64,000 nucleotides of DNA from a virus (lineage: Duplodnaviria > Heunggongvirae > Uroviricota > Caudoviricetes). Positions 3,082 to 39,450 of this stretch are shown here, piece after piece. The stretch's first letter is position 1; each line of letters begins with the position of its first letter. Location: IMG/VR virus record IMGVR_UViG_3300043105_000137; one strand, 5' to 3'. Position numbers and translations under genes: made by a program. The notes under the pieces are model-generated. The model saw only the letters and a program-made list of their open reading frames with translations, searched no databases and was not told where the DNA came from.

Positions 3082-4224
3082 ATGCAGATATTAGAAAAAA
3101 CAGAGTTAGACTTTTCAGATGTTTTGATTAAGCCTCGTCGTTCCACTATCGCCAGTCGTAAAGATGCAGATATAACACGAGAGTATAAATTCAAATGGTG
3201 TCCTTATACGATTAAAGGAACTGGTATAATGCAGGCTAATATGGGTACAATCGGTAACTTTGATGTGACGAGGAAGATGTTAAAAGTTGGTTTGTTTGCC
3301 TGTCTGCATAAACACCATGAAGTTAATGACCTTATTGACTTCTTCAAGAGTTTGTCTGACGATGAACGAAAACGAACATTTATTTCTATTGGACTAAAAG
3401 ACAATGGTGTTGATAAACTGAAACAACTGAATGAAGAAGTTTTCAGTGGTAAAGACTATAGTATGTCCATTTGTATTGATGTCCCTAATGGTTATATTCC
3501 ACAGGTAAAACAACTGGTCATTGATATTCGTAAGGTATATCCTAATTGTCTTTTGATGGTTGGTAATGTTGTTACTGGTGATATTGTTGAAGACCTTATC
3601 CTTTCGGGAGCTGACATAATCAAAGCTGGAATTGGTGGTGGTGGACAATGTATCACGAGAAAACAAACTGGTGTAGGTCGCCCTCAATTATCAACTATCA
3701 TAGAATGTGCGGATGCGGCTCACCAAGTGGGGGGTATGTGTTGTTCTGATGGTGGAATTACTTGTCCGGGTGATATTGGTAAGGCTTTTGGAGCAGGTGC
3801 GGATTTTATCATGATTGGTAGTTTGTATGCTGGAACAACGGAAGCTGATGGAGAAATAGTTGAAAAGACATACCTCACAAATGAACGAACAACAGAGGTG
3901 GTTAATTATGTCATGGGTGTAGTTAATCATGAAAAAGTATATGAAACCAAAAAGTTCAAGTTGTTCTATGGTATGAGTTCATCACTGGCTCAGGAAAAAT
4001 TTGGTGATGGAAAACGTAAGTATCGAGCCAGTGAAGGCCGTGTTAGTTTGGTACCATATGTAGGTTCAGTTGATGATGTAAATGAGGAATTTCTTGGTGG
4101 ATTGAGAAGTACAATGACATATATAGGAGCAACAAAACTTAAAGATATACCTAAGTGTTGTGTGTTCTATAAAGTGAATAATCAGTTGAACCGTACATAT
4201 GAAGGTTCAACAATAGGATATTAA
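3082..4224 (+). CDS. guaC: GMP reductase (IMPDH/GuaC family)
   Basis: The N-terminus LDFSDVLIKPRRST, the GIGGGGQCITR motif and the segment CSDGGITCPGDIGKAFGAGADFIMIG all match GuaC signature regions. Confidence 0.8.
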   Translation: MQILEKTELDFSDVLIKPRRSTIASRKDADITREYKFKWCPYTIKGTGIMQANMGTIGNFDVTRKMLKVGLFACLHKHHEVNDLIDFFKSLSDDERKRTFISIGLKDNGVDKLKQLNEEVFSGKDYSMSICIDVPNGYIPQVKQLVIDIRKVYPNCLLMVGNVVTGDIVEDLILSGADIIKAGIGGGGQCITRKQTGVGRPQLSTIIECADAAHQVGGMCCSDGGITCPGDIGKAFGAGADFIMIGSLYAGTTEADGEIVEKTYLTNERTTEVVNYVMGVVNHEKVYETKKFKLFYGMSSSLAQEKFGDGKRKYRASEGRVSLVPYVGSVDDVNEEFLGGLRSTMTYIGATKLKDIPKCCVFYKVNNQLNRTYEGSTIGY

Positions 4225-4226
4225 TT

Positions 4227-4448
4227 ATGATGACTTTTGAATTAAACGACGAAGAAGAAAAGGAAGCGTTGGCCTTTATGGAGGAACATAAGAAAGTGTG
4301 TCCTCATTCCTTCGCTAATGGAAACCTCCCCGCAACAGGTGAACATTACTATTATAAGTTCATTCCCGGAGGTCTTGGTTCATCAGTCTTAATCGGATGT
4401 GTTTACTGTAATGTTGAAAAGGACATTACTGATGTTAGTTGTTGGTGA
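4227..4448 (+). CDS. Hypothetical small Cys-containing protein
   Basis: The ORF has an ATGA overlap with the guaC stop. Confidence 0.4.
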   Translation: MMTFELNDEEEKEALAFMEEHKKVCPHSFANGNLPATGEHYYYKFIPGGLGSSVLIGCVYCNVEKDITDVSCW

Positions 4449-4573
4449 TGTATACCTTAGTAAATGTTTATGGTTTAGGTAGTTTTGGGAAGTTTTATGA
4501 TTTAGAGTCAGCGGAGAACTACCTGTTTTCACTTGATGATTGGATTGACTGGATGGTTGAGAAAATTTAACAT

Positions 4574-4604
4574 GAGAGGGGTCGCATGACCTCTCTCTTT
4601 TTTG
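4574..4604 (+). terminator. Rho-independent terminator
   Basis: A GAGAGG...CCTCTC stem-loop is followed by TTTTTT. Confidence 0.55.
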
Positions 4605-4620
4605 TTATGTTTAGGTTATG
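4601..4620 (+). promoter_or_regulatory. Class-2 conserved upstream motif ending in a start codon
   Basis: The sequence TTTGTTATGTTTAGGTTATG has its terminal ATG coinciding with the start of the small ORF at 4618. Confidence 0.45.
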
Positions 4621-4782
4621 AAAAGATATAAGTACAAAATAGTTAGAACCAACAAGGAGGTTTCAGAAGCCCAGTTGAACACACTTGGTAGACAGGGGTG
4701 GGAACTGTGTGGAGTGACCTATGACAATGTATGGGGATTGACATATTACATTAAAAAAGAAATTGAAGAAACGAATGGGTAA
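4618..4782 (+). CDS. Small hypothetical protein (54 aa)
   Basis: The sequence is MKRYKYKIVRTNKEVSEAQLNTLGRQGWELCGVTYDNVWGLTYYIKKEIEETNG. It falls below the 60-aa cutoff of the track. A promoter motif lies immediately upstream. Confidence 0.4.
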   Translation: MKRYKYKIVRTNKEVSEAQLNTLGRQGWELCGVTYDNVWGLTYYIKKEIEETNG

Positions 4783-5362
4783 GATAGTATTTAATTATGG
4801 TTGTATGGGTTCAGGTAAGACATCTAAAATGTTAACCCAATTTGATTCATACAAACGACGAAGAAAAAATCCAATTATTGTAAAACCATGTGTTGACACC
4901 AGAGAAACAACTGGGAATGACACTAAATTCATTGGTTGGGGTGTAACGAAATCACGAATTACGAAAAATGAAGAACCCACATATTATTTTGAAGACCTTA
5001 GAGAATCCTTATCATTACTTGATTTTGGGGTTCTTTTTGTTGATGAAGCTCAGTTTTTGACAAGAGAAGATGTGTTAACTCTATGTGATATTGCCGACAT
5101 TAGAGGTATTGATGTCTTTTGTTATGGTCTAAAAACTGACATTAATGGTGAGTTATTTGAAGGGAGTAAACATTTATTGGCACTTGCTGATGAATTTATT
5201 GAGATTGATACCCCTTGTGAGATTGATAGATGTGATGGAAAAGCTATTTGTCATATTAGATTTGTCAATGGTGAAATCGAATATGGAGGTCCGAGTGTAG
5301 AAATCGAACAAGGTAATGTAACATATAAATCAGTTTGTAGAAAACACTGGCATCATTTGTAA
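4775..5362 (+). CDS. tdk: Thymidine kinase
   Basis: The P-loop is FNYGCMGSGKTS and Walker B is LFVDEAQFL. The C-terminal zinc-ribbon cysteines are present (VCRKHW). The track start at 4763 is a TTG, so the ATG at 4775 is preferred. Confidence 0.85.
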   Translation: MGKIVFNYGCMGSGKTSKMLTQFDSYKRRRKNPIIVKPCVDTRETTGNDTKFIGWGVTKSRITKNEEPTYYFEDLRESLSLLDFGVLFVDEAQFLTREDVLTLCDIADIRGIDVFCYGLKTDINGELFEGSKHLLALADEFIEIDTPCEIDRCDGKAICHIRFVNGEIEYGGPSVEIEQGNVTYKSVCRKHWHHL

Positions 5363-5363
5363 T

Positions 5364-6497
5364 ATGGAAAGAAGTACCGGACTATCACCTATAATTAAAT
5401 ATACTGGTGGTAAAGAAAAAGAATTACCATATATCATTCCCAACCTCCCTGAATTTGATAGATACTTTGAACCATTTGTGGGTGGAGGTTCTGTATTCAT
5501 GGGTGTAGAAGCCAATGAATACTATATCAATGACTTTTCGTGGGAATTGACAGACCTATATAAATGTATTAAAACCTCTGATAATCAATTCTTTGAGTAT
5601 GTTGGAGATATTATTAAGTCTTGGGGGTTAGTAAAACATTTATTTCTCACATCCAAAAAATACTTAGTTGATGGTATATACTCAATATTCTGGAAAGATG
5701 TCATTCGTGAGAGTAGAGTAAAAGATATGATTGATGCTTATTGTGAAGACTATAAAGATAATATTGATTGTATCTGTCCTGATTCATTTAAGAAAACTAA
5801 TTGGACTTTTATTCAAGAACTCAAAACGAATTTATTTCGCAAGATGAAACGAATGAAAAAGTTGGATGAGAATAATACTGAACTTGACCTAATGATGGCT
5901 GATGATAATATACAAACCGCCATTCACTCTGCTCTGTATATGACTTATCGAACTTTGTATAATGATGAGAAACTAACTAAACAAGATAGAACTCTCCACT
6001 GTGCCTTGTATTTTTTTATTAGGAACTATGCTTACTCAGGGATGTTTAGGTATAATGACAATGGTGAATTTAATGTACCCTATGGAGGAATGGGATATAA
6101 TAAAAAATCATTATCAAGTAAAACTAATTATTACAAGTCAGATGAGGTGATGGAACATTTCAATAAGACCTCTATATTCAATCTTGACTTTGAGGAATTT
6201 TTGAAGAAATGTAATCCAACCGAGAATGATTTTATATTCTTGGATCCTCCTTATGACAGTACCTTCTCCACTTATGCCCAGAATGAATTTACAAAGGATG
6301 ACCAAATTAGATTAGCGAACTATCTTATCAATGAATGTAAAGCTAAGTGGATGGTAGATATTAAATATACAGATTTCATTTATGACCTGTATAACAAACC
6401 CGGAATCAGGATTGTGACGTTTGACAAGAAATACCAAGTCAATTTTATGGGTAGAAATGACACGAACGTCACACACATAATGATAATGAATTACTAA
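5364..6497 (+). CDS. DNA N6-adenine methyltransferase (Dam-like, D12 class)
   Basis: The protein carries motif I FEPFVGGGSV and motif IV FLDPPY. No cognate restriction endonuclease gene is adjacent, so this is an orphan methyltransferase. Confidence 0.7.
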   Translation: MERSTGLSPIIKYTGGKEKELPYIIPNLPEFDRYFEPFVGGGSVFMGVEANEYYINDFSWELTDLYKCIKTSDNQFFEYVGDIIKSWGLVKHLFLTSKKYLVDGIYSIFWKDVIRESRVKDMIDAYCEDYKDNIDCICPDSFKKTNWTFIQELKTNLFRKMKRMKKLDENNTELDLMMADDNIQTAIHSALYMTYRTLYNDEKLTKQDRTLHCALYFFIRNYAYSGMFRYNDNGEFNVPYGGMGYNKKSLSSKTNYYKSDEVMEHFNKTSIFNLDFEEFLKKCNPTENDFIFLDPPYDSTFSTYAQNEFTKDDQIRLANYLINECKAKWMVDIKYTDFIYDLYNKPGIRIVTFDKKYQVNFMGRNDTNVTHIMIMNY

Positions 6498-6510
6498 AAA
6501 TTGTAAAAAC

Positions 6511-6540
6511 TCAGTCAATGTTAACTTAAACTTGGCTGAG
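6511..6540 (+). terminator. Hairpin terminator candidate
   Basis: The arms ctcagtcaa...ttggctgag form an imperfect 9-bp inverted repeat, followed by a T-rich tract. Confidence 0.35.
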
Positions 6541-6560
6541 TTTGTTATTTTTATAGTGAA
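6541..6560 (+). promoter_or_regulatory. Class-2 conserved upstream motif
   Basis: The sequence TTTGTTATTTTTATAGTGAA lies upstream of the Thg1-like gene. Confidence 0.45.
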
Positions 6561-6577
6561 ATTCAAAATTAATTGTT

Positions 6578-7351
6578 ATGATTTTCCGAACCCTAAAAGA
6601 AAAATGTGAGTATTACAGAAGTCTGACTGATTATCGACTTCTTCCAAATGGTTACATTATGGTTATGATTGATGGTAAGAATTTTTCCACATTAATCAAA
6701 AACAAATTTGAGAAACCATTTGATGAGCAGTTTATTGAGATGATGAATAAAACTGCGAAGTATCTATGTAAGAATATCCAAAATTGTGTAGGTGCTTTTG
6801 TTCAATCAGATGAAATTAGTCTTGTCATTCGAGACACTAATGAAACCTGTGTACCCTTTGATGGTAGAATGTGTAAACTTTTGTCCATCATTCCCTCTAT
6901 TGCAACATCATACTTCACAAAGTTGATGATTGAATATGAGTTGAAACTTGTCCCCAGATTTGACCACATCTTTGAAATGAAAGATTATGTGTTCGACTGT
7001 AAGGTATGGGTTGTTCCTAATGAGAATGATATGTTAGCTTGGTTCTTATACCGTCAGATAGATTGTATTAAGAACTCAAAGAATCAGTTTTGTCAGACAT
7101 ATCTCTCACACAACACCCTGAGAGGACACAATTCAGATGAACAAGTTAAGTTGTGTTTGGAACAGACTGGAAATGATTGGAATTTGGTTTCTGATGATAA
7201 AAAGTTTGGTCGTTTCATCTACAAATCACAAGTAGTTAAAGTAAACCCAGAAGGACAGGAATATACCAGAAGTGTATGGGATATTGTTTCTTATGAGATT
7301 GCTAACAAAGAAAACAGAGAAGACTTAAAAAATAAATGGTTAAATAAATGA
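6578..7351 (+). CDS. Thg1-like protein (tRNA-His guanylyltransferase / 3'-5' nucleotidyltransferase family)
   Basis: The segments MVMIDGKNFSTL and AFVQSDEISLVIRD align with the Thg1 regions VVRLDGRNFHRF and AYGQSDEYSFVF that contain the catalytic carboxylates. Confidence 0.6.
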   Translation: MIFRTLKEKCEYYRSLTDYRLLPNGYIMVMIDGKNFSTLIKNKFEKPFDEQFIEMMNKTAKYLCKNIQNCVGAFVQSDEISLVIRDTNETCVPFDGRMCKLLSIIPSIATSYFTKLMIEYELKLVPRFDHIFEMKDYVFDCKVWVVPNENDMLAWFLYRQIDCIKNSKNQFCQTYLSHNTLRGHNSDEQVKLCLEQTGNDWNLVSDDKKFGRFIYKSQVVKVNPEGQEYTRSVWDIVSYEIANKENREDLKNKWLNK

Positions 7352-7818
7352 AGACAATGCGAAAATTCATAGTTTGTCTATTGATGTCTTTTATTGGACT
7401 GACATCATGTGTGGTGGCTCAGAGTGTTGACAGTGATTATCGACCAGTTTATTATGATTATGTCATCACCGGACTTATCAATGACCCGGCCTTTGTGAAT
7501 GATGGGTTTTATTCATATCACATTGTGGGAACTATTCCAAGTAATGTGTATTGGGAACTTCTACCTTGTGGTATTGAGGTAGGTCTATATAATCAAAGTG
7601 GTATTTTTATTAGGAATTTTGTCCCAGTAAAGAGATGGATTTTCTACAATCATTCACGACACCATTATTATGATAGGCCTCGTGGATACCAACCTAAATA
7701 TAGAACACAACCTCGACACAACAACCGACCACAAGTTAGACAAAATAAATCTAACAACCGACCACAGGGGAAACCGAATACACAACAACATAATAACGGT
7801 GGTAGAGGCCGACGATAA
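7348..7818 (+). CDS. Secreted lipoprotein with a basic Pro/Gln/Asn/Arg-rich tail
   Basis: A signal peptide with lipobox (LTSC) is present. The C-terminus reads RPRGYQPKYRTQPRHNNRPQ...GGRGRR. Confidence 0.5.
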   Translation: MKTMRKFIVCLLMSFIGLTSCVVAQSVDSDYRPVYYDYVITGLINDPAFVNDGFYSYHIVGTIPSNVYWELLPCGIEVGLYNQSGIFIRNFVPVKRWIFYNHSRHHYYDRPRGYQPKYRTQPRHNNRPQVRQNKSNNRPQGKPNTQQHNNGGRGRR

Positions 7819-7871
7819 TACAATAGAAAGTTGAACTGAAAATGATTCAACTTTCTAATTTTTAAGAAGTT

Positions 7872-8231
7872 ATGAAAAGAAAACCGATAAGTAAAAAACT
7901 CAGGGAGGAAGTTTATAAAAAATACAACGGTCACTGTGCATATTGTGGATGTGAGTTGGAGATGAAAGATATGCAAGTTGACCATGTTGTTTCAGTATAT
8001 CGTTCATATTGGAAAAAAGAAGATATAGATTTGAATGATATAGACAACCTGATGCCTTCTTGTCGTCAATGTAACTATTATAAAGATGTACTGACAATAG
8101 AAGGGTTTAGGAACAAATTGAAAACCCTGATGTCAAGAGTTAAACAACCATTTATTTACCGTCTTGCTGAGAAATACAACATGGTAACAGAGTTGGAGTG
8201 GGATGGTTTATTTTATTTTGAGAAACAATGA
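7872..8231 (+). CDS. HNH endonuclease
   Basis: The motifs CAYCGCEL...VDHVV...CRQCNYYK are present. Confidence 0.7.
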   Translation: MKRKPISKKLREEVYKKYNGHCAYCGCELEMKDMQVDHVVSVYRSYWKKEDIDLNDIDNLMPSCRQCNYYKDVLTIEGFRNKLKTLMSRVKQPFIYRLAEKYNMVTELEWDGLFYFEKQ

Positions 8232-10051: not shown

Positions 10052-10112
10052 CAAATTTTTAGCACTTAAAATTTGGAGGACTGAAAAAAAACCTGTATCT
10101 TTGTAGTGTAAT
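10048..10112 (+). promoter_or_regulatory. Class-1 promoter cassette (Bacteroidota sigma-A type)
   Basis: An upstream element TTAACAAATTTTTAGCACTTAAAATTTGG is followed by TTTG, a 20-nt spacer, TAtcTTTG, then tagtgtaa. Confidence 0.6.
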
Positions 10113-10130: not shown

Positions 10131-10433
10131 ATGGAAACTAAACAGGAACTTCGAGATGAAATCAGACGTCTAAACAATGAGATGACTGATTTGAAAACTG
10201 AAAATATTAAACTCATCCAAAAACTTGACCAGTTTGACACAGCATATGAAAACTGGAAAACATTAAACGGTCAGTTCTTGGATAGATACATCAAAGATTA
10301 TCTAAAAAATAATCTATCTATTGAAATGTCATATACTGGTGATTATGGTCAAGAATCACAATTATCTAATGTTAACATTTCAATAGATGATGTAAAAATC
10401 ATTTCAACAGACAATTATCCCAGTTATTTCTAA
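10131..10433 (+). CDS. Hypothetical coiled-coil protein
   Basis: A 100-aa ORF preceded by a promoter cassette. Confidence 0.5.
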   Translation: METKQELRDEIRRLNNEMTDLKTENIKLIQKLDQFDTAYENWKTLNGQFLDRYIKDYLKNNLSIEMSYTGDYGQESQLSNVNISIDDVKIISTDNYPSYF

Positions 10434-10445
10434 AACTTAAAGAAT

Positions 10446-11060
10446 ATGTTTAGTTACGACCACAACTACTTAGGTAAATTGTATATAGTTAAGGCCAAGT
10501 GTCTTAGTAAATATGCAAGAAAGTCCCTCCGTTCACCCCTATTCACTGTCCACAATAATGAGGAAGGTGATTTCATAGGACTCACCTCAGAATACTTGGG
10601 TGAAGAATATGATTGGGGTTTGGTAAAAATCACTGAAGATTTTGGTGATAAAGTAAAAGGCATGGTATATCTCCTTGATGTACATTGTTGTTACCAATAT
10701 GGAAATCTTGTCAGTGAAGAAATCATTGAGAAAGAAGACTTGGTTTTACTTAACTGGCCGATGGTTATGTATCTATATAATGTCCTTGGTTGGGATTGGT
10801 TGGTAGATAGTTACCTTCGTTATCTTGAAATCTTCTCAACTGGTCGTTCAGGTATCACATCAGACTGGGCGATTAGAGATTTCAAAACAGATAAGGTTCT
10901 CAAAGAGTTCAAAGACAGAGAGGATTATGATGAAAACTATGTTCCTTGGATGATTAAACAAGTTGAAACACAGATGAACATTAATCAAATCGAAACCGAG
11001 TTAGAAAACAAATTCCCTAAACTTTATAACAACAACTATCATGTATCAAGCCGAAGTTAA
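10446..11060 (+). CDS. Hypothetical protein
   Basis: A 204-aa ORF. Confidence 0.45.
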   Translation: MFSYDHNYLGKLYIVKAKCLSKYARKSLRSPLFTVHNNEEGDFIGLTSEYLGEEYDWGLVKITEDFGDKVKGMVYLLDVHCCYQYGNLVSEEIIEKEDLVLLNWPMVMYLYNVLGWDWLVDSYLRYLEIFSTGRSGITSDWAIRDFKTDKVLKEFKDREDYDENYVPWMIKQVETQMNINQIETELENKFPKLYNNNYHVSSRS

Positions 11061-11218
11061 AGAAGTCTTTAATGACACCCTTCTCAAACCCTCTTACTCA
11101 GGTAAAAAAATGACAAAGGATGACCTCGTTAAGTTTTGGGGTTTGAATGAACCGGACATTGAATGGTATAATCTCTATGAGGTTGACCAAAATGGTAATC
11201 GTAAAATGATGAAATAAA

Positions 11219-12493
11219 ATGAAACTAACATTCAAAGACATAGAAGATAAAGGACTTCTCTTATATCGTTACATAAGGGGTTCACAGGTCTATGGTACCA
11301 ATGTCGAAACAAGTGACGTTGATGAAGGTGGTATCTATATCGCTCCCTCAAATCAACTTCTTGACCTTGGTTTTGATTACCAGAATGAAATCTGTGATGA
11401 GAAACATGATACCTGTTGGTGGGAGATAGGTAAGTTCATGAGACTACTCCTATCATCTAACCCCACTGTATTGGAAGCCCTGTTCGTTCCTGATGATAAG
11501 GTCTTGTATGAACACCCCATCATTACGAATATCAAAAAGTATCGTGACCAATTCATCACCAAACAATGTTTCATGCCTTTTGGTGGTTATGCTGTGTCTC
11601 AGATTAAAAAGGCTCAGGGACAAGATAAGAAAATTCACTGGGACATTGAGAAGATGGTTAGAAAGACTCCCCTCGATTTTTGTTATACTTTTAAGGGACA
11701 GGGTAGTCAAAACATTCAAACTTGGCTCAGTGAACGAGGTCTTGACCAAAGTAACTGTGGATTGGTAAATGTGCCCAATATGCCTAATATGTTTGATGTG
11801 TTCTATGACTTTGGTCAACACATTGAACTAAATGGTATCACAAAAGAATTTTTCACCGACGAAAAAAATCGTAATGACAAATTCTTGAACTATGTATATA
11901 CAACTTTAACATCTAAATTTGACCAGACCGAAATGAAATGGTCTTGGGTAATGAAAAATCTTTATGAAAAAATTAAAACTCCTTTTGGTAAACACTGCGG
12001 TATCATTTCTAATGTGGGTTCAAGTAATGAAATCCGTTTTTCAGAAACATTAAAAGGTTCTACACCTATTTGTTATATGTCTTACAATGAAAATGGTTAT
12101 AGACAACATTGTAAGAAATATCGTGAGTATGAGGATTGGAAGAAAAACCGTAACAAAGCTCGGTATGAAAACAACCTTGAAGGACTCGAAAAAGAAAACT
12201 CAGCGAAGTTCTATGATGCTAAGAATATGTGTCACTGTTTCCGTCTGATTTCTATGGCGATTGAAGTAGCTAAGGGTGAAGGACTTAAACTTGACCGTAG
12301 AGGAATTGATGCTGATTTTCTCCTTGATGTTAGAAATAGAAAATATACTTATGATGAGTTGATGTCTAAACTAACAGAACTTAAATCTCAAATGGATGAA
12401 GAAATATCTAAATCTGTTATTCCTGATGAGATTTCTGTTGATATGGTAAATGACCTCCTGTTATATGCACGAAATAAATTCAACCAGAAATGA
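11219..12493 (+). CDS. Pol-beta-superfamily nucleotidyltransferase
   Basis: The N-terminus carries GSQVYGTNVETSDVDEGG, a match to the GS-x9-13-DxD nucleotidyltransferase signature. Confidence 0.5.
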   Translation: MKLTFKDIEDKGLLLYRYIRGSQVYGTNVETSDVDEGGIYIAPSNQLLDLGFDYQNEICDEKHDTCWWEIGKFMRLLLSSNPTVLEALFVPDDKVLYEHPIITNIKKYRDQFITKQCFMPFGGYAVSQIKKAQGQDKKIHWDIEKMVRKTPLDFCYTFKGQGSQNIQTWLSERGLDQSNCGLVNVPNMPNMFDVFYDFGQHIELNGITKEFFTDEKNRNDKFLNYVYTTLTSKFDQTEMKWSWVMKNLYEKIKTPFGKHCGIISNVGSSNEIRFSETLKGSTPICYMSYNENGYRQHCKKYREYEDWKKNRNKARYENNLEGLEKENSAKFYDAKNMCHCFRLISMAIEVAKGEGLKLDRRGIDADFLLDVRNRKYTYDELMSKLTELKSQMDEEISKSVIPDEISVDMVNDLLLYARNKFNQK

Positions 12494-12699
12494 TAGGATA
12501 TATTTTAGGTATTTTAGTAGCATATTGTCTTGGACTTTATACTATCCATATCATATTGAGTGATTACAAAAAATCATCTCTTAGGTTCAAAAACATACAA
12601 CGTGATTTGATATTTCACTTTATAATGTCACTCTTTTCTTGGGGATCCGTTGTAGTTTATATCATCTTAATAATTCAACTTCACATTTATAAAAATTGA
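12490..12699 (+). CDS. Small membrane protein
   Basis: Two predicted hydrophobic helices. Confidence 0.4.
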   Translation: MIGYILGILVAYCLGLYTIHIILSDYKKSSLRFKNIQRDLIFHFIMSLFSWGSVVVYIILIIQLHIYKN

Positions 12700-12929
12700 T
12701 TATGAGCACTTGGTTAATTATTTTTATCATCTATGTTCTTGGTTGTATAGTTAACTTCTGGTTGACTGGAAAAATCACAAAGAACTATTATAAAACTCGA
12801 CCTGTCCCCTCAAAAGAAACCCTCAGAAAAGACAGATTGATTGACCTTATCCTGTCAATTTCATCTTGGATCGGTGTCATGGCTCTGTTGTTCAGTTCTG
12901 TTTGTTACTATGCAGGAGATGAAGATTAA
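12696..12929 (+). CDS. Small membrane protein
   Basis: Two hydrophobic helices and an ATGA overlap with the upstream gene. Confidence 0.4.
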   Translation: MIMSTWLIIFIIYVLGCIVNFWLTGKITKNYYKTRPVPSKETLRKDRLIDLILSISSWIGVMALLFSSVCYYAGDED

Positions 12930-12942
12930 TAATAAGTAAGGT

Positions 12943-13095
12943 ATGTTTACAGGAATTCATGCTATCGTTTTGATGATTATGTGTTACTGTGCAGGTATTG
13001 GAGCCATTATCTTTGGACTCGAAATCATTATCTACGTTATAACCTACAGTATTCTCGATAGAAAAGAAAAACAATTAGAAAAATGGCGACACTAA
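12943..13095 (+). CDS. Small membrane protein (50 aa)
   Basis: The hydrophobic sequence MFTGIHAIVLMIMCYCAGIGAIIFGLEIIIYV.. falls below the track cutoff. Confidence 0.3.
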   Translation: MFTGIHAIVLMIMCYCAGIGAIIFGLEIIIYVITYSILDRKEKQLEKWRH

Positions 13096-13230
13096 CATTT
13101 TGTATATTATGTTTCTTTGTGGTTGTGGTTGCCTCTCTGTTTTGTTGGTTGATCATTAATGTTTACTTTGATATTTGTGAGAACATTAGGGATATTAAAA
13201 AAATAAACAAAAAATTAAACAAAGAAAAAT
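13081..13230 (+). CDS. Small membrane protein (49 aa)
   Basis: The hydrophobic sequence MATLTFCILCFFVVVVASLFCWLIINVYF.. falls below the track cutoff. Confidence 0.3.
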
Positions 13231-13600
13231 GAAAAAGTTTAAGACAGAAGAAGTCAAACAGAAAGCTCTGAACATTTTATATAATGACAACAATCTCTCT
13301 AAGAAAAATGTTGATAGTTATATAAATGGTTGGTTGGATGCTCAGAAAGAATGTGACCAACCAATGAAAGATGACATTACTGATTTTATAAAATACTTCT
13401 CAGATAAGACTGATAAAAATTCATTCTATCAAGAACTCCAACGACATTATGGATATAGTGGTTATACATCACTTCCCCAAAATGTAAATGTGATTATTGA
13501 TAAGTATGACAAGATATGTGATAAACTAAAAGAAGTTGTCACAATGCTTGATGAAGTCTATTCACTGAAATTACATTCTAAAGATTATGTCGGTCAATGA
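13229..13600 (+). CDS. Hypothetical protein
   Basis: A 123-aa ORF. Confidence 0.45.
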   Translation: MKKFKTEEVKQKALNILYNDNNLSKKNVDSYINGWLDAQKECDQPMKDDITDFIKYFSDKTDKNSFYQELQRHYGYSGYTSLPQNVNVIIDKYDKICDKLKEVVTMLDEVYSLKLHSKDYVGQ

Positions 13601-13677
13601 TATTCTATTAGTGATAGCCATGGCATTAGCTGTCGTGACTATCTGTCTTTTAATATATGTTTTTATAAAATTGTGGG

Positions 13678-14769
13678 ATGAATGATTTAATTAAAGACCT
13701 ATACTTTACGAAAAGTTTCGTCAGTTATTCACATGGTCTAAATAAATGTTTTGGTTGTAAGTATTGTCGAGCGATTGAAACTGACAAATTAAACTATGAC
13801 ATTTTACCAGAAGAAATCAATCCCATCTTCAAAAGTTTTCCGGTTGCGATTAATTTGATGTATGGAGATCCCCTTCTACAAGTTGATGATACTGTAAAGA
13901 AACTTAGGAGATTGGAAAGTGTTGGTCATACAGGCCCAGTTATCATAATCACCAAAGGAGATATATCAAAGTTTCCTATTTTGGAAACTTTTGACTTGAA
14001 CCTTCATTTTGGTTTATCTACTTTTGGTTATGATTCTCCTTATGATGGTAATACATTAAAACGGTTTATTCACAATCTCGATGTCATTTCTCAAAGTAAT
14101 TACAAGTATAACATTGAGTTCAGACCTATCATTCGTGATGTAAATGACTCTGATGATGTCTTTGACTTTGTATGTCGAACTGCTTCTGAATATAAAACAT
14201 CTATTGGGTATTCAGGATTACAGGTCAACCCCTCACTAAAACAATATTTAGAAAGTCAAGATATTCATTTCAAACCGTATGATGGACATGAGTTTGGGTT
14301 GAAGAAATTTATATCTGATGAGAGAGATAATAGACTGAGAGAAATTGCTAAGTCTTATGATGTCCCTATTTTTAGAAAGACTTCATGTTTAATTGCCCAT
14401 ACACATAATCTGGAAAGGGATCCAAATGCACATTATTATAGACCAAATGAGGTTGGTTGTTGGGATTGTCCTATGAGGGATAAATGTATGAGTTATAAGA
14501 AATCCCATGAAACAAAAACTAAACTTGATATTGAAATCCCCTTTAATTATGAGTTAATCCATGATGTAAAATACCAATGTGGTCTATTGAAAGCAGGTCT
14601 ATGTAAATTTCCATCTAATGATTGTTTGAATATATCCGGAACTGTGATTAAAATAGATGATGAGATTACGACGACAGATGTTCGTGCGATAAAATGGTTA
14701 ACCGGATATACAGTCCAAGCCAAATTTCAAGAATTACCCTACCTATCAAAAAACTGGTTAAAACAATGA
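13678..14769 (+). CDS. Hypothetical Cys-cluster protein, possibly a radical-SAM-like Fe-S enzyme
   Basis: An N-terminal CFGCKYC cluster (CxxCxxC) is followed by a Gly-rich MYGDPLL segment. This fit is weak because canonical radical SAM enzymes have CxxxCxxC. Confidence 0.3.
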   Translation: MNDLIKDLYFTKSFVSYSHGLNKCFGCKYCRAIETDKLNYDILPEEINPIFKSFPVAINLMYGDPLLQVDDTVKKLRRLESVGHTGPVIIITKGDISKFPILETFDLNLHFGLSTFGYDSPYDGNTLKRFIHNLDVISQSNYKYNIEFRPIIRDVNDSDDVFDFVCRTASEYKTSIGYSGLQVNPSLKQYLESQDIHFKPYDGHEFGLKKFISDERDNRLREIAKSYDVPIFRKTSCLIAHTHNLERDPNAHYYRPNEVGCWDCPMRDKCMSYKKSHETKTKLDIEIPFNYELIHDVKYQCGLLKAGLCKFPSNDCLNISGTVIKIDDEITTTDVRAIKWLTGYTVQAKFQELPYLSKNWLKQ

Positions 14770-15095
14770 AACCTCAAATTACTGCGAAAGAACTATTGAA
14801 TAATCCCAAATATTATGAGGAAATAGTTAATAAAGTGTACCAAATCATCCTAAAATCTTCAACTTTTGTTAATGTTTATTTAGAAGGACATGAAGTTGAA
14901 ATGATTGATGTAGATTTCAATGGTGAAGGAAGATTTAAGGAAGTTGAAGAATACTTTGAAGATTTCGCAATAGAATATAAATGGATTTGTCACATCTATG
15001 ATGATGCTATGGATATGATTCGTGATAATTATAGAGTTTATGGATATGACAATGACGAATTTTTCTCTTATAAAAAAGATGAATATTATGATTGA
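14766..15095 (+). CDS. Small acidic protein
   Basis: The start was moved to the ATG overlapping the upstream stop (ATGA). The protein is rich in D and E. Confidence 0.4.
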   Translation: MKPQITAKELLNNPKYYEEIVNKVYQIILKSSTFVNVYLEGHEVEMIDVDFNGEGRFKEVEEYFEDFAIEYKWICHIYDDAMDMIRDNYRVYGYDNDEFFSYKKDEYYD

Positions 15096-15339
15096 AAAGA
15101 AAGAAGATTTTACAATTAAAGAATTAAGAGAGTGGATAAGACATGACTTTTTAGATGCCTTGTCTTATGCAGTCAATAATGATGATGATTTATATCTCTG
15201 TCAAAAGTTTCAGAATTATTTTCTTTGGAGAGTAGGTCGAGTACATTGGGGGGGAGTGACAACTGAAACTGCACATTTTTTTAATGAACATAAAGAATTA
15301 ATTAATACAATAGTTGAATTAGTAAATGAAAAAGTATGA
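15088..15339 (+). CDS. Small hypothetical protein
   Basis: The start was chosen at the ATGATTGA overlap. The track ORF begins at 15022. Confidence 0.35.
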   Translation: MIEKKEDFTIKELREWIRHDFLDALSYAVNNDDDLYLCQKFQNYFLWRVGRVHWGGVTTETAHFFNEHKELINTIVELVNEKV

Positions 15340-15634
15340 TAATAGATATAGTGAGTCCGAACTATCATCAGCACGTGAGGATTGTGGAGAGATATGGGAT
15401 GAAGTAATCGCCGAAGTAGCTCAGTTAGTTGTTGATGAGTTTATCAGTTGTGAATCTTCTTGGGAGGTTGTTTCTGAAAAAATTGACAATGGTGGAATAA
15501 AGAAATTTGTATTTGAGTATTTTGACCAGTCGGATTTTGATGAAGATTTTGTTGATGGTATATATGGAAATGTGATGGATAATATTCTTGATGACATTTT
15601 TGATAGTTTGATAATAATGGGGATGGGGAAATAA
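15326..15634 (+). CDS. Small, very acidic protein
   Basis: The 102-aa protein is dominated by D, E, F and I residues. Confidence 0.45.
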   Translation: MKKYDNRYSESELSSAREDCGEIWDEVIAEVAQLVVDEFISCESSWEVVSEKIDNGGIKKFVFEYFDQSDFDEDFVDGIYGNVMDNILDDIFDSLIIMGMGK

Positions 15635-15637
15635 CTT

Positions 15638-15702
15638 TTAACAAATTTTTAGCACTTAAAATTTGGAGATGTTAGAAAAAACCTGTAACTTTGTAGTGTA
15701 AT
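15638..15702 (+). promoter_or_regulatory. Class-1 promoter cassette
   Basis: The sequence is TTTTAACAAATTTTTAGCACTTAAAATTTGG...TAacTTTGtagtgtaa. Confidence 0.6.
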
Positions 15703-15718
15703 TAAAAAACAAGATATA

Positions 15719-16339
15719 ATGACAGAACAAGATTACATAGAATATGCTGAACAAGCCTTCGACAATATAGTTGATGCTCTTGAACAGATTGAACTTGGAA
15801 AGGTAACAATCCTTACAGGTGACAATGGTTCAGGTAAGTCACTTATTAGAAAAGTCCTTGCTTCTGACCTCAAAAGAAAGAACAATGGTGAGAAGGTGAT
15901 TGTTGCGGATTCTTCTATGGATAAACGAACCGGACTTCATAGTGAAATGGGTGGTGGTGGTGTTTTCCTTCGTGACACATCTTGGGTAGCAACATCAAGT
16001 AACACAATGAATGGAATCAAAGGTTTGTTTAGTTGTTCAGATGACCGTTATATCGTACTTGATGAACCTGAAATTGGTATGAGTGCTTCTATGCAAATGT
16101 CATGGGGTAAATATATCAATGACTACTTGACTGAAAATAAGGACAAATACAAAGGTGTTCTTATCATTTCTCACTCAAAAACTCTGATTAATCAACTCAC
16201 AATCGCTGACAAATTCATTAATATCCAAAAGAAAACCAAAGAAGAATGGATGAATGAAGAACCAGAGATGATTGATATTGAAGAATTTGAGAAAAAATCA
16301 AATGCTCTTTATAAGGTGTTGTCAAATCACCTCAAATAA
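15719..16339 (+). CDS. P-loop ATPase (ABC/AAA_21-like)
   Basis: Walker A is GDNGSGKS and the Walker B / D-loop region reads VLDEPEIGMS. Confidence 0.55.
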   Translation: MTEQDYIEYAEQAFDNIVDALEQIELGKVTILTGDNGSGKSLIRKVLASDLKRKNNGEKVIVADSSMDKRTGLHSEMGGGGVFLRDTSWVATSSNTMNGIKGLFSCSDDRYIVLDEPEIGMSASMQMSWGKYINDYLTENKDKYKGVLIISHSKTLINQLTIADKFINIQKKTKEEWMNEEPEMIDIEEFEKKSNALYKVLSNHLK

Positions 16340-16363
16340 GTCTAACCTCTAATTTCAAATAAA

Positions 16364-16543
16364 ATGGACAAATACGACCTCAAAGAAAAATTGGTTCACC
16401 TACATGAAACAATAGATGCAAAACTTCGTGACCTCATGTATAGTGAATGTGATGAAGAAACAGGTGAGATTCGAGATAGAATTTACATCCGCCTCTCTAA
16501 TGAACTCTATAAACTTGAAGAAGAAATTTATAACATCTATTAA
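16364..16543 (+). CDS. Small hypothetical protein (59 aa)
   Basis: The sequence begins MDKYDLKEKLVHLHETIDAKL... and falls below the track cutoff. Confidence 0.3.
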   Translation: MDKYDLKEKLVHLHETIDAKLRDLMYSECDEETGEIRDRIYIRLSNELYKLEEEIYNIY

Positions 16544-16545
16544 TT

Positions 16546-17025
16546 ATGATTGCTGAAAATTATAAAACTCTCGAACAAGCTATCACCATCCTTGAAATTC
16601 TTGGTGTTCCTCACTATGACATGATGGTGTGTGGAAGTATCGCTCTTGATATTTGTGGTTTGTTCCCTGAAAATAGAGACGCCGCCACTGACATAGACAT
16701 TGTTATCCGAGTAAAACATGATGAAATAGAAGCTTATCGTCGACTTATTCTCTGGGTAAACAATATCCAAGAACGTGTAATGGGACAAGAAACATCACCC
16801 GGAAAACCCATGTCACTATATATGAAAGGTGATAAACACATTGATATATGGTTGGTGGACAAAGAAACTACCGACTTTGGAACAGATATTCAATTCCAAT
16901 CAAAGGATCCTGTTGTGACTGGTTTCTGGGTTGAACGACCTATCGACTGTATCAACAAAAAGAAAGAATACAATCGAACAAAAGACATTAAGGATATTCA
17001 ATCAATCGTAAAAAAAATATTATGA
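16546..17025 (+). CDS. Minimal nucleotidyltransferase (pol-beta fold)
   Basis: The segment CGSIALDICGL...DIDIVIRV matches the GS...DxD nucleotidyltransferase signature. Confidence 0.5.
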   Translation: MIAENYKTLEQAITILEILGVPHYDMMVCGSIALDICGLFPENRDAATDIDIVIRVKHDEIEAYRRLILWVNNIQERVMGQETSPGKPMSLYMKGDKHIDIWLVDKETTDFGTDIQFQSKDPVVTGFWVERPIDCINKKKEYNRTKDIKDIQSIVKKIL

Positions 17026-17285
17026 TAAATCTCGCTGATATACTAAGACATTGTAAAAAAGGTATCACACTCTACACTACAGTCTATGGTGAAGTAACAT
17101 TTAATGGTGTTTCTGAATTTGAGACCATTATGTTTTCGTGCGATATTAATGATGATGAGGTCTTTTGTGATGCAACTGATATGTATGGAAAGTTGTTCTC
17201 AAAAGGTGAGTGTATCATTTTCCCAAGCTATGACCGTCTCAAATGGAATGATGTTAAGGAAGTAAATGGTGAACTGTCATGGTAA
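17022..17285 (+). CDS. Hypothetical protein
   Basis: An 87-aa ORF with an ATGA overlap. Confidence 0.4.
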   Translation: MINLADILRHCKKGITLYTTVYGEVTFNGVSEFETIMFSCDINDDEVFCDATDMYGKLFSKGECIIFPSYDRLKWNDVKEVNGELSW

Positions 17286-17797
17286 ATCGAATAAGTGTTT
17301 TTTCACAAGCTGACTTCGACATTAAGATGTGGCGAATGAATATCAGCGATGAAAATGTGGAGAGAGAAACAGACAAGGCGTTCATCTCTATCATTGGAAC
17401 ACCGGATTGTCTTAACAACTATCTCCATGAAGAAACATATCACTGGTTCCAAAAAGATACAGATAATGTGTTGAATATGGAATTTGATGATGTGAATGAT
17501 GACCAATTCCTATACAAAGGGACAACGTTCTTAGGTATCAGTGAAGACCAAGCTAAGAAATGTGTAGAATTTATTGAACGAAATAAAGGTCGTAATTTCT
17601 ATATTCACTGTCGAGCTGGTAAATCAAGATCACAAGCCATCTGTCGTTTCATACTTGATATGTATGGTGAAGAATATGGATACACTGAAAAAGAATCATG
17701 TCTATCCAGTAACCCTCCCAAAACACCTAACATCAGGGTGTTGACTATGTTGAAAAGAGAATTTTATAAACTCCATAATATGTTTGAAGAAAAATGA
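17279..17797 (+). CDS. Protein tyrosine / dual-specificity phosphatase
   Basis: The CX5R catalytic loop IHCRAGKSRS is present. Confidence 0.6.
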   Translation: MVNRISVFSQADFDIKMWRMNISDENVERETDKAFISIIGTPDCLNNYLHEETYHWFQKDTDNVLNMEFDDVNDDQFLYKGTTFLGISEDQAKKCVEFIERNKGRNFYIHCRAGKSRSQAICRFILDMYGEEYGYTEKESCLSSNPPKTPNIRVLTMLKREFYKLHNMFEEK

Positions 17798-35645: not shown

Positions 35646-36224
35646 ATGATATTAGGAAGTCATAAATCATTAAGTTATATCACACCTAAGAAATGGTGGA
35701 TGTGGTTTCTTACTCCAATGTATAAACACCAAAGTAAGGACTTAGGACAACAACTCAAAGAAGGTATTAGAGTTCTTGATATTAATGTCCGATTTGATGA
35801 TCATGGTAATGTATCTGTCTGTGATGGGATATATGAAACCAAAAGTTATAATCCCAGAGTATTCACACTACACACTATTAATAAGATAGACAACTTTGGT
35901 GATAAAGATACCGATTATTACATCATTCTCACCCTCGATACAAAAAAGGCGTCATTAATACAAGAAGTGGAATTCATTAAACTATGTAAGGAATTCACAA
36001 GTAGATATTTTAGAAATAATGTTCACTTGCTTGGTTGTAGACGTAAGTTTGATAATGAGAAGGTATATGTTGGTTCACCTGATTTCACTGATATGTCTAT
36101 TATCTCAGCAACAGACCAAAAAGATTCTCGATGGTATGAGAAACTTATCCCTTGGTTCTATGCGAAACGAAAAAACGAAACTATTGAACCCACCTCAAAT
36201 GTAACCCTTTTGGACTTCATTTGA
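35646..36224 (+). CDS. PI-PLC X-domain-like phosphodiesterase (tentative)
   Basis: The segments ILGSHKSLSY and IRVLDINVRFDDHGN resemble the His-containing catalytic segments of the PLC-like phosphodiesterase fold. Confidence 0.3.
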   Translation: MILGSHKSLSYITPKKWWMWFLTPMYKHQSKDLGQQLKEGIRVLDINVRFDDHGNVSVCDGIYETKSYNPRVFTLHTINKIDNFGDKDTDYYIILTLDTKKASLIQEVEFIKLCKEFTSRYFRNNVHLLGCRRKFDNEKVYVGSPDFTDMSIISATDQKDSRWYEKLIPWFYAKRKNETIEPTSNVTLLDFI

Positions 36225-36227: not shown

Positions 36228-36292
36228 TTAACAAAGTTTTAGCACTTAAAATTTGGAGATGTTATAAAAAACCTGTAACTTTGTAGTGTAAA
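36228..36292 (+). promoter_or_regulatory. Class-1 promoter cassette, copy 1 of 3 in tandem
   Basis: The sequence is TTTTAACAAAGTTTTAGCACTTAAAATTTGG...TAacTTTGtagtgtaa. Confidence 0.6.
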
Positions 36293-36325
36293 ACAAAAAG
36301 AACATTGAAAAGATGATTGAAAAAA

Positions 36326-36394
36326 GATTTAACAAATTTTTAGCTCTTAAAATTTGGTCAAGTCAAAAAAATCAAGTATCTTTGTAGTGTAATT
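36326..36394 (+). promoter_or_regulatory. Class-1 promoter cassette, copy 2 of 3
   Basis: A near-identical cassette. Confidence 0.6.
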
Positions 36395-36423
36395 AAAAAC
36401 AACATTACACAAGATGATTGAAA

Positions 36424-36494
36424 AAAGATTTAACAAATTTTTAACACTTAAAATTTGGTCAGGTCGAAAAAATCAAGTATCTTTGTAATGTAAA
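36424..36494 (+). promoter_or_regulatory. Class-1 promoter cassette, copy 3 of 3, with the conserved leader
   Basis: The cassette plus the leader AAAACAAAAACAAAGTTTAACTCTCTAAA lie upstream of the ATG at 36531. Confidence 0.6.
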
Positions 36495-37452: not shown

Positions 37453-37471
37453 CTTTTTCATTTGATGCTTT

Positions 37472-37612: not shown

Positions 37613-37613
37613 A

Positions 37614-39448: not shown

Positions 39449-39450
39449 TT

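Follow-up and report, generated by a model that had tools for sequence, protein, structure and literature searches.

A putative RNA end-repair gene set with linked RlaP and companion nucleotidyltransferases in a Lak-like megaphage

Phage RNA repair and the megaphage locus

The Pnkp/Rnl1 tRNA repair system of phage T4 is a countermeasure against tRNA cleavage. In the split CC-adding and A-adding enzymes, rebuilding of the tRNA 3' end is divided between two nucleotidyltransferases. An earlier study put RlaP forward as the principal RNA-repair nucleotidyltransferase of jumbo phages, in which the sporadic occurrence of Thg1-type genes is known as well (PMC7824862). The RlaP enzymes add one or two nucleotides onto 3'-OH ends of RNA and are unable to act on 3'-phosphate ends; these measurements are confined to Pseudomonas enzymes, distant from the RlaP considered here (PMC12776372). 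Toxins of the MenT type are kept inactive in two ways, by small antitoxins and by phosphorylation of the active site (PMC11375011).

The DNA analyzed here is a stretch of 64 kb (hereafter, the window) from a giant gut phage, a Lak-like megaphage with a Bacteroidota host and Bacteroidota-type promoters. The interval 11219–17797, on the + strand like all the window ORFs and promoters described below, is a stretch of a rightward-transcribed accessory arm rather than a single module, because it encompasses two transcription units and because comparative genomics divides its gene set. The motif TTTG-N20-TAnnTTTG occurs in 15 copies on the + strand of the window (3.2 expected over both strands combined), and a 21-mer upstream of this motif in 8 copies (0 expected). 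The predicted promoter at 10056–10103 (–33 TTTG, 20 nt, –7 TAtcTTTG, with the conserved 21-mer upstream) likely opens unit 1 (10131–15634), and the second predicted copy, at 15646–15693 before the ATPase gene, likely opens unit 2, from the ATPase to the SPFH gene or further. Behind this one promoter follow the genes for the ATPase, a 59-aa ORF, the small nucleotidyltransferase, an 87-aa ORF, the phosphatase and a 138-aa ORF, with 2-nt gaps or 4–7-nt overlaps between them. Tight gene packing is universal throughout this phage genome. The first-pass annotation credited several of the genes with class-1 promoters of their own; the repeated motif is real, but own promoters were overstated, the interval holding one copy.

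RlaP, its companion and the Thg1-like enzyme

Judging by its sequence, the 424-aa ORF at 11219–12493 is a bona fide RlaP-family RNA 3'-terminal nucleotidyltransferase. It scores 70.3 bits against the Pfam RlaP profile (PF10127; cut-off 23), matches phrog_388 over the full length (E = 6e-48) and has 2103 homologues. The GS...SDVDE signature that was noticed initially is present at residues 21–22 and 32–36, and G21, S22, S32, D33 and D35, along with C-terminal residues, are invariant over distant phage RlaPs; the window protein thus retains the catalytic GS and DxD and the conserved C-terminal positions of the family (RlaP of P. fluorescens and P. aeruginosa, NrdC.11 of T4). The resemblance to ‘RlaP/CCA/cGAS-type' enzymes noted originally holds for RlaP, whereas the family searches give no support to CCA-adding or cGAS-like identities. 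Like other jumbo-phage RlaPs, the window protein is surrounded by tRNA-related genes (PMC7824862). Unlike the known RlaPs, it carries a ~100-aa insertion relative to the phrog_388 profile, lacks an RNA ligase gene nearby and has a dedicated companion nucleotidyltransferase, which is unmentioned in the RlaP literature searched. The gene content 3' of RlaP is different in each relative examined.

The companion (16546–17025, ~150 aa) is, as previously proposed, a minimal nucleotidyltransferase, with the LnuA/TM1012/MenT1 fold. The family is rare, with 93 representatives among 1.84 billion proteins, and its invariant residues are G30, D49, D51, K139, R144 and D147. The nearest structural relatives are antibiotic-modifying enzymes and one tRNA-modifying toxin; repair enzymes are not among them. 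Unlike the minimal nucleotidyltransferases LnuA, ANT(2'')-Ia and TM1012, the window companion has no Pfam match, the resistance families and AbiEii/DUF1814 included; AbiEii/DUF1814 is matched by one of 62 members of the companion family (E = 1e-3). LnuA and ANT(2'')-Ia adenylylate antibiotics, whereas the genomic context of the companion indicates RNA. The companion shows no sequence-level similarity to MenT1 (Rv0078A), the Mycobacterium tuberculosis toxin, and, unlike MenT1, is phage-encoded, has a repair enzyme as its linked gene or fusion partner and lacks a conserved antitoxin.

The companion adjoins RlaP or is fused with it in all 10 loci with informative context, which represent about seven lineages from one phage clade and span RlaP identities down to ~45%. 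The two are fused in four loci (L130, L137, L138 and L149), abut in three (L131, where stop and start overlap, L135 and L177), and lie 2.5–4 kb apart in the remaining three (L016, L023 and the window, with a distance of 4 kb and separate transcription units in the window). The L130 fusion is a single uninterrupted 647-aa ORF in which the RlaP part, 47% identical to the window RlaP, is followed by the companion domain. Over the linked loci, the identities of RlaP and the companion co-vary, indicating co-inheritance. The suspected link between the two nucleotidyltransferases is borne out by their fusion or adjacency in related phages. Because the companion is present in only 5 of 80 RlaP loci, RlaP does not depend on it.

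Outside the interval originally singled out, 4 kb upstream of the window RlaP, lies a gene for a Thg1-like tRNA 5'-end (3'→5') nucleotidyltransferase (6578–7351; Thg1 PF04446, E = 3.3e-29, above the cut-off), which is counted here in the repair set. Of the 80 IMG/VR loci, 19 have a Thg1-like homologue no more than 8 kb from RlaP, and one also accompanies RlaP in L015, L016, L018 and Erwinia phage Kaldavass, a recurrent linkage that is not stated in the literature searched. In Salmonella phage KE22, a CCA-adding enzyme is encoded 2.6 kb from RlaP. The window contains six tRNA genes, none of which encodes CCA. The Thg1-like gene and the tRNA genes nearby agree with the RNA-repair context proposed earlier for the nucleotidyltransferases. 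The scan of the window ORFs (outside the neighborhood of the interval, those over ~150 aa) yielded no RNA ligase, no polynucleotide kinase/phosphatase and no 2H/cyclic phosphodiesterase; the phage genome, of at least 351 kb, reaches far past the 64-kb window searched for a ligase.

The ATPase, the phosphatase and the passenger genes

The 206-aa protein encoded at 15719–16339 is, by its motifs and profile matches, a minimal ABC-superfamily ATPase (AAA_15/AAA_21-like). It contains Walker A (GDNGSGKS), Walker B with the D-loop (VLDEPEIG, including the LDEPE segment noted initially) and the H-loop (ISHS), and lacks the LSGGQ signature; its ABC_tran score of 23.6 is slightly under the cut-off of 25, and the family profile matches ABC-F, UvrA, ZnuC, AriA and Rad50. 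The ATPase gene is directly upstream of RlaP in Lak-A/C and 2.6–5.8 kb from it in L149, L043 and L033, L149 having both the ATPase and the RlaP–companion fusion. RlaP, found nearby in 6 of 26 ATPase loci, is the sole neighbor conserved across lineages, and the ATPase is near RlaP in 3 of the 80 RlaP loci. Accordingly, the ATPase is a loose, recurrent neighbor of RlaP, with most ATPase loci lacking a nearby RlaP, and the strong membership in a module that was implied at first is not upheld.

The 172-aa ORF at 17279–17797 encodes a dual-specificity-type Cys phosphatase. The HCRAGKSRS loop reported in the first-pass annotation is present, and HCxAGxSRS and D71 are invariant in the family. The protein resembles the DUSPs (phage D3 orf59/COG5350; phrog_5614) in the HCx5RS loop, the upstream invariant Asp and the similarity to DUSP catalytic-domain profiles (E = 4e-6 for the family profile against DUSP10). 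Unlike the DUSPs, it falls under the Pfam DSPc cut-off (23.6 against 33.5); all seven aligned family members match DSPc. The window protein also weakly matches a PTP-SAK domain from an RNA-repair protein (E = 0.0026). The phosphatase is found in none of the 80 RlaP loci, and no RlaP, small nucleotidyltransferase or ATPase is found within 8 kb in 80 phosphatase loci. In Lak phages, the phosphatase gene abuts ClpP, 64–170 kb from RlaP, and in 19–22 phage contigs of up to ~410 kb it is accompanied by genes for DnaK, DnaJ, an AAA+ protein and a HAD-like protein, so that its usual megaphage context consists of chaperone and protease genes rather than RNA-repair genes. L016 and L023 show the same succession of small nucleotidyltransferase, (small ORF) and phosphatase as the window, and the three loci that share it are close relatives (RlaP 70–73% identical). 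The phosphatase is therefore probably a passenger relative to RlaP.

The gene at 13678–14769 encodes a divergent radical-SAM-fold protein in which CxxCxxC replaces CxxxCxxC; C24, C27, C30, G63-D64-P65 and seven more cysteines are invariant in 31 homologues, and the predicted model (pLDDT 91.6) has RlmN and PFL-AE as the top Foldseek matches (E ~1e-5). It is absent from the 80 RlaP loci, lies away from RlaP in L024 and is a passenger with respect to RlaP. This is the largest unexplained gene of the interval, and it was omitted from the first-pass annotation. The 58-aa ORF at 11041–11217, which stops one nucleotide short of the RlaP start, occupies the same position in the close relatives L015, L016 and L023 (52–66% identity) and has no match among the 80 RlaP loci that are more distant. 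By their translations, the four small ORFs at 12490–13232 (69, 77, 50 and 49 aa) are hydrophobic passengers, and only for ORF 12696 does L015 contain a homologue, a weak one, following RlaP. Three lineage-specific small ORFs (14766–15634) have no family matches and no homologues in related loci; they were all described as very acidic, which holds for two (pI 4.4 and 4.05) but not for the third (pI 5.3), and, with pI below 5 in 14 of 34 neighboring ORFs, acidity is not distinctive. The 87-aa acidic ORF (17022–17285), which overlaps its neighbors by 4 and 7 nt, is kept only in L023, at 48% identity, where the small nucleotidyltransferase and phosphatase genes again flank it. Overall, the ORFs and motifs described initially stand, and the promoter and acidity claims do so in part.

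Competing explanations and the proposed repair set

The interval could be a mosaic of unrelated accessory genes with no cooperation among the enzymes. The variable content 3' of RlaP, the radical-SAM, phosphatase and acidic ORFs unlinked to it, and the co-directional, gene-dense organization of megaphage accessory arms are all compatible with this explanation, which is nevertheless unlikely given the companion beside or fused to RlaP in every informative locus and the Thg1–RlaP association recurring among distant phages. For the nucleotidyltransferase pair, the fusions and adjacencies argue against chance juxtaposition. Quite unlikely, too, is one co-functional end-healing or signaling module in which the phosphatase would clear 3'- or 5'-phosphates and so enable the nucleotidyltransferases. 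Such an activity would help, because RlaP is blocked by 3'-phosphate ends, and the weak PTP-SAK match, the closely packed genes from the ATPase to the 138-aa ORF behind one promoter and the gene order shared with two other phages are all consistent with it. However, packing is tight everywhere in the genome, the three loci are closely related, and outside these phages the phosphatase is unlinked to the nucleotidyltransferases and the ATPase, associating with ClpP or DnaK/DnaJ instead. The initial interpretation is thus supported with respect to RlaP and the nucleotidyltransferase link but not with respect to a single four-enzyme module.

Other explanations concern the small nucleotidyltransferase itself. 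It might be a MenT-like tRNA-modifying effector, either directed against the host to shut off translation or restrained in the manner of a toxin, with the 87-aa protein as inhibitor and the phosphatase reversing an inhibitory phosphorylation. The conserved C-terminal K..R.KD..D motif resembles the lysine/aspartate motif of DUF1814, and a small acidic ORF and the phosphatase follow directly downstream, reminiscent of the neutralization of MenT toxins by small antitoxins and phosphorylation (PMC11375011). Still, we consider this improbable: the four RlaP fusions and the universal RlaP linkage are more easily reconciled with a common pathway than with a toxin, the 87-aa ORF is confined to the window and L023, the AbiEii/DUF1814 match is limited to a single family member, and the presumed counterpart of MenT1 T39 before the DxD, placed by the published numbering rather than by alignment, is A or H in this family, with no conserved Ser/Thr (PMC11375011). 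Modification of a small molecule (an antibiotic or a metabolite), with no RNA role, would parallel the related LnuA and ANT(2''), but is highly improbable for a gene that is obligately linked or fused to an RNA-acting enzyme and whose product, in the window, matches none of the Pfam resistance families.

The best explanation, held with moderate confidence, is that the core of the locus is a tRNA/RNA end-repair set comprising the Thg1-like enzyme, RlaP and the companion, with passengers interspersed. The families, the folds, the linkage of the genes and the fusions are direct results of the comparisons; for the substrates, the cooperation of the enzymes and the anti-defense role, we infer the following scenario. 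Host ribotoxins or anticodon nucleases would cut tRNAs, either those of the host or the phage's own (six in the window), and trim nucleotides off; RlaP and the companion would rebuild the 3' end, perhaps splitting the work by nucleotide or substrate, the Thg1-like enzyme would restore 5' nucleotides, and the break would be sealed by a ligase from the host or from elsewhere in the phage genome. An accessory role is possible for the small ABC-type ATPase, whereas the phosphatase, radical-SAM, acidic and membrane ORFs would be passengers that have entered between the two partners of the nucleotidyltransferase pair. Such a set would resemble T4 Pnkp/Rnl1 as a phage answer to tRNA cleavage, unlike which the window encodes no Pnkp or ligase. 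The division of labor between RlaP and the companion, purely conjectural, would be akin to that of the split CC-adding and A-adding enzymes, which jointly rebuild the tRNA 3' end. The companion co-evolves with RlaP, sister lineages having fused it onto the RlaP C-terminus. RlaP was already known in jumbo phages; neither its obligate pairing with the companion nor the fusion of the two seems to have been described before.

Layout and predicted transcription units of the interval

The window is AT-rich (~34% GC), and its + strand holds nearly all of the long ORFs. The closest database relatives of the protein encoded at 11219, identified below as an RlaP, come from Prevotella Lak megaphages (40–42% identity) and from uncultured phages of ~640 kb. 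JGI and Logan contigs, the longest of 351 kb, encode an identical protein, and no DNA near-identical to the window was found in the phage collection. The relatives with 63–73% identical RlaPs have a conserved upstream backbone of thymidine kinase, Thg1, optionally HNH, a Dda-like helicase, small ORFs and RlaP. In the window, the + strand run of nucleotide-metabolism and DNA genes upstream of RlaP (3082–8231) includes genes for an IMPDH/GMP-reductase-like protein, thymidine kinase and a Dam-type methyltransferase, listed with two HNH endonucleases (207–800 and 7872–8231).

The element TTTG-N20-TAnnTTTG is present in 15 copies on the + strand, against a chance expectation of ~3.2 for both strands combined, and 8 of these copies share an upstream 21-mer (0 expected). 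This promoter-like repeat, which is evidently the ‘class-1 promoter’ of the first-pass annotation, fits the Bacteroides promoter consensus (-33 TTTG, -7 TAnnTTTG). The element together with the 21-mer forms three tandem + strand copies at 36236–36485 (starting at 36236, 36337 and 36438, with ~101 bp spacing), and close pairs are found at 22986/23377 and 58819/58903. Only two copies, at 10056–10103 and 15646–15693, are relevant to the interval 11219–17797, so that the interval is split between two predicted transcription units. The first (10131–15634) consists of a 58-aa ORF, RlaP, four small membrane ORFs, a 123-aa ORF, a gene for a radical-SAM-fold protein and three small ORFs; the second, from 15719 onwards, consists of an ATPase, a 59-aa ORF, a small nucleotidyltransferase, an 87-aa ORF, a phosphatase, a 138-aa ORF and an SPFH protein. 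Within each unit, the genes are separated by gaps of a few bases or overlap by 4–20 nt. A scan for intrinsic terminators found none, and a scan for sigma-70 promoters was uninformative (52 matches, 47 expected). The possibility that an alternative genetic code had produced artefactual ORFs here was rejected, the genes of the interval being intact and tightly packed under table 11.

The 303-aa ORF at 39400–40311 (+) matches the Pfam family Acb3, a CBASS inhibitor (E 3.5e-7, 30.7 bits, cut-off 27), which makes it a candidate anti-CBASS gene. Elsewhere on the + strand, a SIR2-domain protein of 636 aa (33521–35431; E 4e-15) precedes one of 192 aa that matches the PI-PLC X-domain (35646–36224; E 7e-7). 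A gap of ~1.2 kb without long ORFs (60800–62030) contains short AT-rich tandem repeats, and here the GC skew jumps from -0.22 to +0.59 between adjacent 2-kb bins.

RlaP and its small nucleotidyltransferase companion

The nucleotidyltransferase encoded at 11219 matches the Pfam family RlaP (PF10127; 70.3 bits, cut-off 23, E 2.7e-19) and phrog_388 (E 6.3e-48, residues 14–419), in agreement with the RlaP-like identity initially proposed for it. The protein retains the pol-beta motifs hG[GS] and DxD along with the conserved C-terminal residues; in an alignment of the window protein with RlaPs of Lak, Tenacibaculum, Erwinia and Salmonella phages, the invariant positions are G21, S22, S32, D33, D35, Y304, W307, R311, N312, R315, D333, K335, H339 and R342. 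Identity as a CCA-adding or cGAS/CD-NTase enzyme, types to which a resemblance was noted at the same time, was rejected, RlaP and phrog_388 being the only significant families. Searches of PDB sequences with RlaP alone and with an RlaP profile gave no match, and so no RlaP chain, in the copy searched, and a single-protein RlaP scan of viral contigs gave no confirmed match. The RlaP family owes its name to an RNA-ligase neighbourhood, whereas among the window ORFs scanned, which are part of a genome of at least 351 kb, there is no ligase-family match and no Pnkp-type end-healing enzyme. In Lak-B phages, RlaP is a single 766-aa ORF (3486–5783 in the Prevotella phage Lak-B2 contig, L003) with an in-frame insertion of ~360 aa between the residues equivalent to 320 and 333, which may be an intein.

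RlaP has been characterised recently, and its addition activity is known from the Pseudomonas enzymes only: these extend RNA 3'-OH ends by one or two NMPs, favour the 5' half of a cleaved tRNA mimic and are inactive on DNA and on 3'-phosphate ends (PMC12776372). They have been proposed to counter nucleotide-removing ribotoxins; the addition of nucleotides in vitro shows little specificity, and the path to correct tRNA repair is unclear (PMC12776372). Both RlaP and Thg1 have previously been listed among the RNA-repair components of jumbo phages (PMC7824862). The ORF at 6578 is a Thg1 homologue (PF04446, 101.9 bits, cut-off 29.2), and Thg1 homologues lie within 8 kb of RlaP, often abutting it, in 19 of 80 IMG/VR RlaP loci. 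Thg1 is likewise near RlaP in the Erwinia jumbo phage Kaldavass, whose Dam–Thg1–RlaP arrangement the window resembles, and a CCA-adding enzyme is encoded 2.6 kb from RlaP in the Salmonella phage KE22; thus, RlaP tends to have tRNA-end enzymes as neighbours. The window itself carries six tRNA genes (40–1906 and 37380–37687), none with an encoded 3' CCA, which include two tRNA-Lys (TTT, CTT) and a tRNA-Phe whose called anticodon, AAA, is unusual.

The small nucleotidyltransferase encoded at 16546 belongs to a narrow family, with only 93 representatives recovered by an exhaustive profile search of 1.84 billion proteins. One of these (P0265, 647 aa) combines an N-terminal RlaP domain, 47% identical to the window RlaP, with a C-terminal small-nucleotidyltransferase domain, 28% identical to the window protein, and is encoded on its contig (L130, 7255–9198) as one unbroken ORF under table 11; at another locus (L131), the gene of the small nucleotidyltransferase overlaps the stop codon of RlaP. 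The family is present in 5 of the 80 IMG/VR RlaP loci, three of which encode fusions (L137, L138 and L149), with the small nucleotidyltransferase located directly downstream of RlaP and followed by Thg1 in the remaining two (L135 and L177). One of the fusions (L149) has the ATPase of the window as a gene 2.6 kb downstream and so unites all three of the components present in the window. Across all loci with usable gene context, which include the window, L016 and L023 and span approximately seven lineages, the small nucleotidyltransferase is either fused to RlaP or no more than 4 kb away from it in every case (10 of 10). The short contigs L132–L134 carry the gene and yield no gene context. Among the linked loci, identity falls to ~45% for RlaP and to ~25% for the small nucleotidyltransferase, and the similarity matrices of the two proteins group the loci alike, a pattern suggestive of co-inheritance. 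No member of the family is found near RlaP in Lak or in L015, L017, L018, L033 and L043; the small nucleotidyltransferase is therefore an optional yet exclusive companion of RlaP. An alignment of 62 distant family members was too divergent for use, and scans of viral contigs and JGI metagenome contigs yielded no confirmed relatives.

The ATPase, the phosphatase and the radical-SAM protein

The ATPase (ORF at 15719) contains Walker A, Walker B with the D-loop, and the H-loop. Its invariant residues across homologues from Lak, other huge phages and Caulobacter/Brevundimonas jumbo phages are G34, N36, G39, K40, S41, D115, E116, E118, G120, H152 and S153; the homologue alignment lacks an LSGGQ and shows just a conserved (S/A)T(S/G) near T92. 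Both halves of the profile align to ABC-F, UvrA, ZnuC, AriA and Rad50. The window protein scores 23.6 against ABC_tran (cut-off 25), and homologues match AAA_15 (5.8e-8) and AAA_21 (2.2e-6). In 26 ATPase loci, RlaP is the sole neighbour conserved across lineages (6 of 26), adjoining the ATPase in Lak-type genomes and lying 2.8–5.8 kb away in L043 and L033. The true ATPase is present in 3 of the 80 RlaP loci.

The phosphatase (ORF at 17279) has the HCx5R(S/T) P-loop, in the form HCxAGxSRS, and an upstream general-acid Asp; D71, H110, C111, A113, G114, S116, R117 and S118 are invariant in seven homologues. The N-terminus is conserved in L015, L016 and L023, which supports the start at 17279. The protein alone scores 23.6 bits against Pfam DSPc, below the cut-off of 33.5, but 7 of 7 aligned members match this family (best E 5.4e-6), the profile finds DUSP10 in the PDB (E 4.3e-6), and the RefSeq labels of Pseudomonas-phage relatives are dual-specificity phosphatases. 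In the Lak genomes, 64–170 kb separate the phosphatase from RlaP, and the gene immediately downstream of the phosphatase is ClpP, which it abuts in Lak-B and Lak-C (5884–7057 in L019 and 5875–7055 in L020). Between 19 and 22 of 80 IMG/VR phosphatase loci, on contigs of up to ~410 kb, place it beside a HAD-like (DxDxT) gene, DnaK, DnaJ and an AAA+ ATPase, in a conserved block located around 8000–15800 in L047–L071. The ClpP, DnaK and DnaJ context hints at a possible role in protein quality control.

The first-pass annotation correctly recognised the motifs of RlaP, the ATPase and the phosphatase but left unmentioned the ORF at 13678–14769 (+; 363 aa). This protein has a divergent predicted radical-SAM fold and 400 homologues, mostly on phage-like contigs from gut metagenomes. 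It lacks the canonical CxxxCxxC of PF04055 and has, instead, an invariant CxxCxxC (C24-x2-C27-x2-C30), accompanied by an invariant GDP motif and seven more invariant cysteines. The predicted model (pLDDT 91.6) is a partial TIM-barrel radical-SAM fold, for which Foldseek returned RlmN, a radical-SAM methyltransferase and PFL-AE (E 1e-5, probability 1.0), with RlmN and PFL-AE as the nearest solved folds; precomputed PF04055 matches exist for two of the listed homologues. PDB profile searches with this protein and with the small nucleotidyltransferase gave spurious matches only, to designed proteins and L10. The gene is not linked to RlaP elsewhere.

Competing readings and a proposed role in RNA repair

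The reading of the entire interval as a single module, phosphatase included, is opposed by the survey of 160 loci: none of the 80 RlaP loci contains the phosphatase or the radical-SAM gene, and none of the 80 phosphatase loci contains RlaP, the small nucleotidyltransferase, the 87-aa ORF, the ATPase or the radical-SAM gene within 8 kb. Only the window, L016 and L023, whose RlaPs are 70–73% identical, have the small nucleotidyltransferase followed by the phosphatase, with an optional small ORF between the two. The original interpretation is right in part, as to RNA repair and the two nucleotidyltransferases, whose linkage is borne out by fusions and adjacency; it is weakly supported for the ATPase and not supported for the phosphatase. 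Position in the interval alone is no reason to count the phosphatase and the radical-SAM gene among RNA-repair components, and a module annotation for Lak-like megaphages that was attractive but unsupported is now corrected.

For the nucleotidyltransferase pair, three other readings have to be weighed. The companion could be a MenT-like effector or toxin: it shares with the MenT/AbiEii toxins structural similarity, the catalytic DxD and the C-terminal Lys/Asp motif, and the acidic 87-aa ORF (17022–17285) that overlaps the 3' end of its gene is an antitoxin candidate. However, the window protein has no Pfam match, and so none to the MenT/AbiEii models (DUF1814, PF08843), only 1 of 62 family members matches AbiEii (E 1e-3), and the 87-aa ORF is conserved in L023 only. 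A small-molecule nucleotidyltransferase would be expected to resemble the antibiotic-modifying LnuA/ANT(2'') enzymes, but the companion does not match a model of that family (e.g. PF10706). Finally, no two of the closer relatives share what lies downstream of RlaP with the window, and the two genes could be a pure mosaic juxtaposition. The strongest argument against all three readings is the existence of the fusions.

RlaP, Thg1, DSP-type phosphatases and ABC-type ATPases are all known kinds of proteins in huge phages; the accessible literature, a scope outside which the founding RlaP paper falls (Burroughs & Aravind 2016), makes no mention of the exclusive RlaP–companion pairing or of the bifunctional fusions. 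Somewhat more likely than not, this phage would use RlaP, the companion and Thg1 to rebuild trimmed tRNA ends. The companion would supply a second addition step or extra specificity, tRNA 3' ends being the substrate of MenT1-type enzymes; the substrates and the cooperation of the phage enzymes are what we infer here. We propose further, and with considerable doubt, that RlaP and the ~150-aa companion might be a previously unrecognised two-nucleotidyltransferase system for template-free rebuilding of RNA 3' ends, used together with Thg1 by Lak-like megaphages against host tRNA-targeting defences. The system would sometimes be a single bifunctional protein of 610–660 aa and might, for example, restore trimmed nucleotides of the tRNA anticodon loop or CCA, with the labour divided between RlaP and the companion. 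A dedicated partner nucleotidyltransferase, found fused to RlaP time and again, is a tangible candidate for the second step or for the specificity that is missing.
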